64,000 bases of DNA from Escherichia coli (GTDB lineage: Bacteria > Pseudomonadota > Gammaproteobacteria > Enterobacterales > Enterobacteriaceae): assembly GCF_044324875.1 (NCBI RefSeq), contig NZ_CP172185.1; one strand, 5' to 3'. Shown here piece after piece: positions 40,244-41,467 of this stretch (position 1 is its first letter; each line of letters begins with the position of its first letter). The notes below the pieces were generated by a model that did not search any database, was not told where the DNA came from, and was given only the letters and a program-made list of their open reading frames with translations. A program made the translations under genes and the position numbers.

Positions 40244-41467
40244 TTATGGGATTATATTCTGGTAATGATTTGATAAGCGAATTTTTTTGCCAGTTGGTGT
40301 TTCTATTTCCACCCCATAATTTATAGTTTTTTCATCAGGTAGCGATCTCTTTAAATAAGGTGCGTATGACATTTTTTTTGGGTTAAGCGTCTCGTATTGA
40401 AATACTTCGAATTGATATTCAGACATTTCTGCCCATGTTTGAATTTTATTGTATCGGGAGAGTGTCGTAAAGGCTTTAACTTGCTTATAACATTGCTTTT
40501 GGAATTCTTTCTGATATTTTAATATGTCATTGTATGAAAGATTGGTTATCCTGGCCTCTAAGAATTTAATTATTGTCGAAGCAATTTCCGCTTTTGCTCG
40601 TAAAAAGTTGTCATTAATGGTTAATAATGTTGAAAATAAACCTTCGATTTGTTTGTCAAGATATTGTTCGTCTTTATATAATTTTGGGGTAGGGTGTTCT
40701 TTATGTGAAAAAATAGTGTCACCTAAATTTGCGTCAGTGAAATTTATATTAAGTAGATCTTCGAAATAAAACCTTGACAAGGTTAGAACGAACCCGGACA
40801 GGTTCTGTCCTGTCATATTGAAATCAATAAAGTTGGTTCCGGCAAAGACTTTCATCCTGTTTTTATTTTCACTGTGTTCAATATATAACTTCGTCATTTT
40901 TTGATACAGGCTTTGAATATCTTTTATATTAGTCGGTAAGTCAGCTCGTTGTTCAGCATTAAAATTAGTATCTGAAAACATGGTTTGGACACTGAATCTT
41001 ACTGGTATTCCCTCTTCTACGCTAATTTTAGTTATGATTGCCTTGTCGGGTTTAGGATTAGCGACAACAATGATTCGACATTCAGAATTTTTATTCTTTT
41101 CGTATCTAATGTTATTAATCTGATTAAGTATTGATTGTGTCTGTTGCGTAAGTGGTGTCGAACTTATCGTTTCAATGTTATTAATAAGACTTACAAGTTG
41201 AGCCACAATTTTTGAGTAGTCTGCATTTGTATATGTAGTGTTCGTGTGGCACGCATTAATTTGTTGGAGTTGTTGTTGCGCTAAATCAAATTGTTCAGCG
41301 TTATATCCTTCTTCAGACAATGAAAAATTAATGGGTTGCTGTTCTTCCTGATTATCACAAGGCCACATCGGTGTGTCTGGTGTTTTAACATTGTCGGTAT
41401 CTGTTGTGCGGTTATAAATATCGCCGTGATATGTATTTATCATACCTGGGGTAAAGTCAATTGACAT
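40244..41467 (-). CDS. yhiS: YhiS, uncharacterised AT-rich protein with an internal pentapeptide-repeat block (intact here)
   Basis: 407-aa ORF at the position of yhiS, which I recall as IS5-disrupted in K-12; low GC, N/Q-rich; 5-residue periodicity in [45 protein letters not shown]. Confidence 0.75.

Follow-up and report, generated by a model that had tools for sequence, protein, structure and literature searches.

The DNA analysed in this study, a stretch of 64,000 nucleotides (nt) from the Escherichia coli contig NZ_CP172185.1 (hereafter the window), carries an intact copy of yhiS, which is flanked by slp, dctR and chuS, the last belonging to the chu haem genes, on one side and by genes for a permease and a helix-turn-helix (HTH) regulator followed by arsCBR on the other. 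The whole yhiS-bearing stretch matches E. coli chromosomes, and of 5426 complete E. coli genomes, 5414 contain a yhiS match, in each case a chromosomal one. Both the 30 genome records sampled and all regions inspected annotate the gene product as 'hypothetical protein'. Here we describe a single, short and divergent pentapeptide-repeat array in this protein, which is predicted to fold as a small quadrilateral beta-helix, and a block of highly divergent DNA in which the gene is embedded. The features of yhiS and its product are given below in coordinates of the window.

40244..41467, minus strand: yhiS coding sequence (CDS), an open reading frame (ORF) of 1,224 nt encoding 407 amino acids (aa) without internal stop, according to the ORF list and its translation.
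40703..40852, minus strand: pentapeptide-repeat array, residues 206-255, ten pentads corresponding to ~2.5 coils of a quadrilateral beta-helix.
40874..40927, minus strand: predicted helix and possible cap, residues 181-198, directly N-terminal to the array, with an AlphaFold 2 predicted local distance difference test score (pLDDT) of 66-75.
40568..40654, minus strand: most conserved stretch, residues 272-300, with 76% invariant columns in an alignment of 14 alleles.
41093..41467, minus strand: N-terminal region, residues 1-125, rich in N, Q and T, acidic and of low complexity, with 23% N+Q, a net charge of -10 and a pLDDT of 20-52.
41473..41477, minus strand: Shine-Dalgarno sequence AAGGA, 5 nt before the ATG of yhiS, read directly from the sequence.

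The original prediction had claimed about ten tandem pentapeptide repeats at window positions 40700-40870 and had quoted a string, FAGTN...FSHKE, that corresponds to residues 208-257 (window 40697-40846). The canonical register A(D/N)LXX puts the pentads at residues 206-255, where we find ten contiguous pentads in one array, as claimed. Each of the ten pentads has L, F or M at its centre, and a run of this length did not occur in any of 20,000 shuffles of the protein; with a looser set of centre residues (L, F, M, I, V, W and Y), an equal run was obtained in 54 of the 20,000 shuffles. The position before the centre (i-1) is occupied by D or N in six of the ten pentads, and the position before that (i-2) by a small residue in only four. 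By the repeat criterion of at least eight tandem pentads with an A(D/N)LXX consensus and an L/F centre, YhiS is a repeat protein. With a five-column scoring matrix built from stretches of pentapeptide-repeat proteins (PRPs) other than YhiS, all ten pentads scored positive (1.2 to 10.5 bits) and every pentad outside the array about zero or below. Since the matrix is positive in the array only, there is exactly one array of ten pentads, or ~2.5 coils. The matrix for one coil (20 aa) yielded 14-28 bits in the array, compared to a maximum of 15.9 bits among 2,000 shuffles. An extra coil at residues 272-291, hinted at by the alignment to the next unit of the multi-unit PRPs described below, was rejected, as its pentad scores were about zero or negative. 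The net charge of the array is -2.

The isolated 70-aa segment matched only PRP families in Pfam, namely PF13599 with an independent E-value (i-E) of 0.05 (14.1 bits) and PF00805 with an i-E of ~1. A match of the whole protein to AIPR_N (E 0.62) was regarded as noise. Since these Pfam scores are sub-threshold, the assignment of YhiS to the PRPs rests on reverse searches and on the structure model. The reverse searches were performed with a profile of 14 diverse YhiS alleles. Against the PDB (E ≤ 10), this profile found only PRPs, i.e. 2f3l (Rfr32, E 0.007) and 3n90 (At2g44920, E 0.28), both of which align to YhiS residues 203-254. Against 1.84 billion representatives, it retrieved one full-length cluster, many fragments of this cluster and 15 other proteins. 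The latter have E-values of 1e-8 to 7e-4, match residues ~204-277 with several stretches each, and all carry both PF00805 and PF13599 at E ≤ 0.001. The original prediction had proposed a Pfam scan for PF00805 and PF13599 and had named the lack of a pentapeptide-repeat profile hit as grounds for its refutation. In this respect, the outcome is divided: Pfam is formally without a significant match, giving nothing for the whole protein and only sub-threshold PRP families for the isolated segment, whereas the reverse searches find only PRPs. On the strength of the sequence comparisons, we assign residues 206-255 as genuine pentapeptide-repeat-type sequence, short and divergent. YhiS is thus an addition of this kind to a well-known repeat class, encoded by a gene that is known yet uncharacterised. 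In UniProt, one fragment of 74 aa with 98% identity already bears the name 'Pentapeptide repeat-containing protein', and no paper linking yhiS to pentapeptide repeats was found in our literature search.

For structure prediction, residues 176-300 were modelled with AlphaFold using an alignment of eight allele segments and 29 matched stretches from PRPs. The resulting model has a pLDDT of 66-78 over residues 186-255, and its strands (residues 212-214, 221, 226, 232-235, 242, 247 and 252-255) follow a 5- and 20-residue periodicity. Such a periodicity is expected of a four-sided beta-helix. The predicted helix at residues 181-198 aligns with the 'QLYSTxSY' linker of the multi-unit PRPs (domain 5 of P0162). 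In a Foldseek search against the PDB, the top matches of the model were almost all PRPs (NleL, NP275, Rfr32, QnrB1, AlbG, alr1298, HetL, MfpA, SopA and SV2). Against AFDB50, the first 15 matches were YhiS entries, followed by PRPs, and the AFDB models of YhiS fragments superpose on the segment model at 2.5-3.2 Å over 71-83 columns. Judging from these models, residues 206-255 are likely to form a small quadrilateral beta-helix. Among the fold matches was also the AFDB model of Q0T0E7, an uncharacterised protein of 238 aa from Shigella flexneri 8401, with a match probability of 0.98 at 11% identity; by its model, this protein may be another unannotated orphan of the pentapeptide type in the same species group.

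The remainder of the protein consists of non-repeat sequence. The description of yhiS as low in guanine plus cytosine (GC) and rich in N and Q is borne out by a GC content of 33.7% for the CDS (30.4% at third codon positions, GC3), compared to 48.5% for the window, and by an N+Q content of 16.2% overall, rising to 23% in residues 1-125. These first 125 residues are probably disordered, gave no family or PDB match, and are the sole part kept in deletion alleles such as that of A42. Neither the N-terminal 206 aa nor the C-terminal 153 aa had a significant match in PDB sequence searches, and the isochorismatase (E 0.13) and MacA (E ~1) entries obtained with these regions were dismissed as chance. 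The degree of conservation in the 14-allele alignment is highest at residues 272-300, where the fraction of invariant columns given above compares to 59% for the array and 46% for the whole protein. This stretch is 86% identical even to the allele P0118, which is only 63% identical overall; its model pLDDT is below 52. The maximum 19-residue hydropathy of YhiS is 0.9 and therefore no membrane segment or signal peptide is expected, so that the protein is predicted to be soluble, neither inserted into the membrane nor exported by a signal peptide. The layout would accordingly comprise a disordered N/Q-rich N-terminus, the helix 181-198, the array, a 15-residue linker, the segment 272-300 and a C-terminal region, which is an orphan and probably helical.

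As claimed from the outset, yhiS is intact in the window: the 407-aa frame is uninterrupted, has the most frequent length among the 136 YhiS relatives found, and its product aligns end to end with the RefSeq-intact proteins of strains MSB1_7A and H15. The 100%-identical copy of NRZ14408 (L001 8108-9224, equal to window 40351-41467) is flagged 'frameshifted' by RefSeq and ends 107 nt before the real stop. Since its annotated end coordinate is that of the 371-aa form of O157:H7, which carries a 1-nt deletion, the flag looks like an annotation artefact, and the 407-codon frame runs through uninterrupted. Our analysis thereby corrects a RefSeq call that marks an uninterrupted yhiS allele as frameshifted.

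In other strains, the gene is disrupted in various ways. In the K-12 derivative, yhiS is split by the insertion sequence IS5 (L002 3875-4855) and the C-terminal piece is additionally frameshifted; the same IS5-split K-12 pseudogene has been described before (PMC8170033), in agreement with the disruption named in the original prediction. The N-terminal K-12 fragment stops at window position 40722, i.e. at codon 249, and IS5 therefore lies inside the repeat array, where it falls in the ninth pentad, ANLGD. Further lesions comprise IS1 in SCU-172, frameshifts, the 1-nt deletion of O157 (371 aa) and a deletion in A42-type strains which leaves only ~125 N-terminal codons. Only 3993 of the 5414 genomes retain an unbroken stretch of 80% or more of the gene. 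Thus, yhiS is often broken and many lineages have lost it.

The YhiS family forms one full-length cluster at 50% identity, in which every named member comes from E. coli or Shigella, and the protein is, as far as database sequences tell, confined to these organisms. The ratio of nonsynonymous to synonymous divergence (dN/dS) was determined by comparison with two other alleles. Relative to strain H15, it is 0.41 for the whole gene and 0.29 in the array; relative to the 63%-identical allele P0118, which occupies the same locus, it is 0.33. Intact yhiS alleles are thus under weak purifying selection, with a dN/dS of about 0.3-0.4. The comparison between strains further revealed that the gene and the spacer upstream of it differ from their surroundings as follows.

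40150..42000, no strand: hyper-divergent, mosaic, AT-rich block comprising yhiS and its upstream spacer, delimited by between-strain identity in 100-nt windows.
41468..42047, no strand: AT-rich upstream intergenic region with a GC content of 35-40%.

Between-strain identity is 95-100% through dctR-slp, falls sharply near position 40150 to 64-88% and stays low to ~42000. The synonymous divergence (dS) in yhiS amounts to 0.30 for H15 and 0.61 for the P0118 strain, compared to 0.03-0.05 in slp (the protein being identical), 0.03-0.09 in dctR and 0.04 in chuS, and divergence between strains is 10-20 times greater for the yhiS island than for its neighbours. The mosaic nature of the block is exemplified by MSB1_7A, which is identical to the window over ~40540-41240 and only 78-88% identical at 41242-41600. 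Several deep lineages of alleles, with 63-96% identity at the protein level and dS values of up to 0.6, persist in surroundings that are otherwise 95-100% identical, and none of them has lost the reading frame or the core of the repeat. These patterns point to old allele lineages that have been shuffled by recombination. The low-GC block around yhiS extends from ~39,750 to 42,250. AT-rich islands, the yhiS island of ~1.9 kb included, are of a kind usually acquired horizontally.

With regard to expression, the equivalent spacer between arsC and yhiS in K-12 has been listed as an H-NS-bound 'promoter island' (PMC3661553), and yhiS is among the high-affinity StpA/H-NS loci in K-12 (bioRxiv 10.64898/2026.02.10.705075). 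Since the island is reported to be bound by H-NS and StpA in K-12, yhiS is probably silent in laboratory culture, and we infer that, also in the strain studied here, the gene is probably silenced by these proteins under such conditions. Overexpression of YdeO did not induce yhiS (PMC4222967). The count of consensus promoter-like sites near yhiS was not above that of shuffles, a sequence scan found no terminator-like site, and no Rfam family was detected within window 38000-44000. An 81-aa antisense ORF (40524-40769, plus strand) overlaps the repeat-coding region of yhiS and was regarded as having arisen by chance in AT-rich DNA.

The junctions on both sides of the gene vary between strains. 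The permease gene and the divergently transcribed gene for the HTH regulator, which is of the ArsR/SmtB type, lie at ~42048-43400 between yhiS and arsC; the pair is also present in MSB1_7A and H15 and is missing in O157, K-12, A42 and the P0118 strain, which makes it a second presence/absence polymorphism at the same junction. On the other side, the chu haem-uptake cluster (chuS, chuA, shuT, hutW and hutX; window ~32000-38700) adjoins dctR in the window, and the neighbours of dctR in K-12 and H15 are yhiD-hdeB-hdeA instead.

The best explanation of the data as a whole, and one that we hold to be on balance correct, is that YhiS is a soluble E. coli/Shigella protein with a single short and divergent PRP array which serves as a binding module, and that the gene is probably silent. 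According to this explanation, the array would fold into a small, rigid beta-helix with the preceding helix as its cap, and the beta-helix together with the conserved residues 272-300 would act, by analogy to other PRPs, as a protein-protein docking surface rather than as a catalytic site or a DNA mimic. Protein binding is the general role of PRP domains outside the DNA mimics. For the beta-helix domain of NleL, substrate binding was suggested by the authors of the respective study (PMC3013003). Several observations weigh against our explanation. At the level of the repeat, position i-2 is bulky (F, Q, E, I or K) in six of the ten pentads, and the three central pentads are weak. At the level of the searches, Pfam returned no match to PF00805 or PF13599 at E ≤ 10 for whole YhiS, NCBIfam, PADLOC and PHROGs were likewise without significant match for the whole protein, and the best independent PRP model score (14.1 bits, i-E 0.05) is sub-threshold. 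Moreover, single stretches in the reverse searches score only 15-26 bits, and the significant E-values come from summed repeats, which is normal for repeats. At the level of the structure, an AlphaFold run on the full-length protein with the 14 YhiS alleles alone gave a pLDDT of 34, too low for the model to be usable, and placed helices with a pLDDT of ~23 in the array; the segment model is partly circular because its alignment was seeded with PRP stretches; and no Foldseek match in the PDB had an E-value of 0.09 or lower, the best one, 0.098, being non-significant. The right-handed quadrilateral beta-helix of the original prediction is hence retained as a prediction of moderate confidence, with the reservation that it comes from a PRP-seeded alignment and that the fold matches are non-significant. 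Finally, a dN/dS of ~0.4 in combination with frequent pseudogenes would also fit a gene that is drifting toward loss.

Taken to its end, such drift would make yhiS a decaying, functionless relic, in which the period-5 pattern is the remnant of a single unit from an ancestral multi-unit PRP and has lost its ability to fold and act. Pseudogenes are indeed common (IS5 plus frameshift in K-12, 371 aa in O157, ~125 codons in the A42 type, IS1 in SCU-172), most of the gene is contiguous in no more than the 3993 genomes mentioned above, the PRP consensus is degraded, and the dN/dS of yhiS (0.3-0.6) is far above that of its neighbours (0-0.17). In addition, neither deletion of the K-12 yhiS remnant nor the K-12 clone on a plasmid had a chlorhexidine phenotype (PMC8170033). 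Yet, with 112-175 nonsynonymous changes counted at a dS of 0.3-0.6, dN/dS stays clearly under 1, the frame is open over its full length (407 or 410 aa) even in alleles with no more than 63% identity, the gene still has a good ribosome-binding site, and conservation is concentrated in the array and residues 272-300 instead of being even, so that we regard a relic as rather unlikely. Effector genes typically show high allelic diversity and many pseudogenes, and YhiS might instead be an effector-like substrate of a type III secretion system (T3SS), either that of the locus of enterocyte effacement (LEE) or the ancestral E. coli type III secretion system 2 (ETT2), belonging to the loose class of EspX1-7, NleL/SopA and PipB/PipB2; secretion would then be directed by a signal in the disordered N-terminus, and the beta-helix would serve to bind a target in the host. 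The order of domains parallels that of NleL/SopA with a disordered N-terminus, a PRP beta-helix and a helical C-terminal part (PMC3013003), two NleL chains are the top Foldseek matches in the PDB (3naw_B, E 0.098; 3naw_A, E 0.13, probability 0.98, 4.0 Å over 71 columns), EspX1 is likewise Escherichia-restricted, widespread in E. coli and without a precomputed Pfam domain, and the first 30 residues of YhiS are rich in S, T, N, I and P and devoid of Leu, which hints at a secretion signal by composition only. Against this stand the non-significance of the Foldseek E-values, the lack of homology to EspX1 (pairwise BLASTP with a best E of 0.085, hhalign probability 1-2%), the fact that no EspX, PipB or SopA relative is among the matches in the 1.84 billion representatives, the absence of both a HECT-like domain and an LFNEF motif, and the presence of yhiS in nearly all E. 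coli, most of which are without a working T3SS. The hint at secreted effectors in the original prediction, which had called for a BLASTP comparison with EspX and PipB2, is therefore not borne out, there being neither homology to EspX1 nor the LFNEF motif of PipB2, and we consider an effector unlikely.

A broader possibility is that the yhiS island represents a long-lived, recombining polymorphism of a conflict-type gene, be it effector-like or aimed at hosts, phages or competitors. The deep lineages with conserved frame and repeat core in an otherwise near-identical neighbourhood belong here, and we rate this reading as quite unlikely. If it were true, balancing or diversifying selection rather than neutral decay would keep the diversity, and the conserved core for binding would be made up of the beta-helix and residues 272-300. 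As to the DNA-mimic proteins to which the original prediction also alluded, YhiS would have to protect or inhibit DNA gyrase or topoisomerase IV in the manner of Qnr, MfpA and AlbG. The type of repeat matches, as does the predicted fold, QnrB1, AlbG and MfpA are among the weak Foldseek matches, and the net charge of the array is negative (-2). However, YhiS has only ten pentads in a 407-aa protein and no other repeat in it, there is no significant sequence similarity to Qnr, MfpA or AlbG, and ~2.5 coils are far too short for a Qnr/MfpA-like mimic, which makes this role highly improbable.

Under the favoured explanation of a soluble protein with a PRP binding module, the small beta-helix is a first structural handle on YhiS, the product of a gene found in nearly all E. 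coli genomes, and its recognition also accounts for the failure of standard domain scans to pick up the repeat. The biological significance is modest: repeats of this type are widespread, the module is a short one, and its presence does not imply any function. The hyper-divergent mosaic island is the more unusual point and the one most worth following up, and it deserves a population-genetic look.

Among the known systems considered for comparison, Qnr, MfpA and AlbG are proteins of ~180-220 aa which consist almost entirely of repeats and form rod-shaped dimers the size of a segment of DNA duplex. They share the repeat type and the fold class with YhiS and differ from it by having roughly 8-10 coils as opposed to ~2.5. 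NleL (EspX7) and SopA (PDB 3naw and 3sy2) resemble YhiS in combining an unstructured N-terminus, a PRP beta-helix and a helical region (PMC3013003). In NleL, the beta-helix occupies residues 171-371, and C-terminal to it lies a bilobed catalytic domain of ~410 aa with Cys753, in a protein of 782 aa in total (PMC3013003), whereas YhiS has ~50 repeat residues and ~150 orphan C-terminal residues without PDB match in 407 aa. A HECT-like domain with an active-site Cys after the beta-helix, looked for with the C-terminal 153 aa, had no PDB sequence match at E ≤ 10; since the N- and C-terminal regions of YhiS are both without meaningful PDB match, no HECT-like domain is expected.

EspX1 (ECs_0025), the sequence of which was taken from O157 Sakai (L006 8334-9752), is encoded by a chromosomal gene confined to E. 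coli and E. albertii, contains a degenerate PRP stretch, has no precomputed Pfam domain and is named a T3SS effector-like PRP. The comparison of YhiS with EspX1 was negative (BLASTP E 0.085, hhalign 1.6% and 1.1%), PipB2 and EspX2-6 not having been compared directly, and an EspX1 family search was too low in diversity to sharpen the result. There is a weak colinear resemblance between YhiS 233-257 and EspX1 324-349 and between YhiS 268-324 and EspX1 390-447, which at E 0.085 is non-significant. The motif G[LV]F.TL..I[ND]D after the repeats forms part of this non-significant resemblance. The C-terminal LFNEF motif of PipB2 for kinesin recruitment is absent, also as a close variant, from the 407 aa of YhiS.

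PRPs of the Rfr fold, represented by Rfr32 of Cyanothece (2f3l) and At2g44920 of Arabidopsis (3n90), have A(D/N)LXX-type pentads with an L/F centre like YhiS, which differs from them in that it has only ten pentads inside a much larger non-repeat protein and an often bulky i-2 position. The best-scoring matches to YhiS are multi-unit metagenomic PRPs (P0156, P0162, P0169 and P0170), in which units of ~70 residues are joined by 'QLYSTxSYxxKDLxG' linkers; their sources label them 'YjbI with pentapeptide repeats', and some carry PEP-CTERM. These proteins have 4-13 units, some with sorting signals, as opposed to one unit between orphan regions in YhiS, and the individual stretches shared with YhiS score only 20-26 bits. 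YhiS residues ~193-277 (window 40637-40891) align with exactly one such unit, with linker-like motifs on both sides. This alignment suggests that the YhiS array descends from a single unit of a multi-unit PRP.

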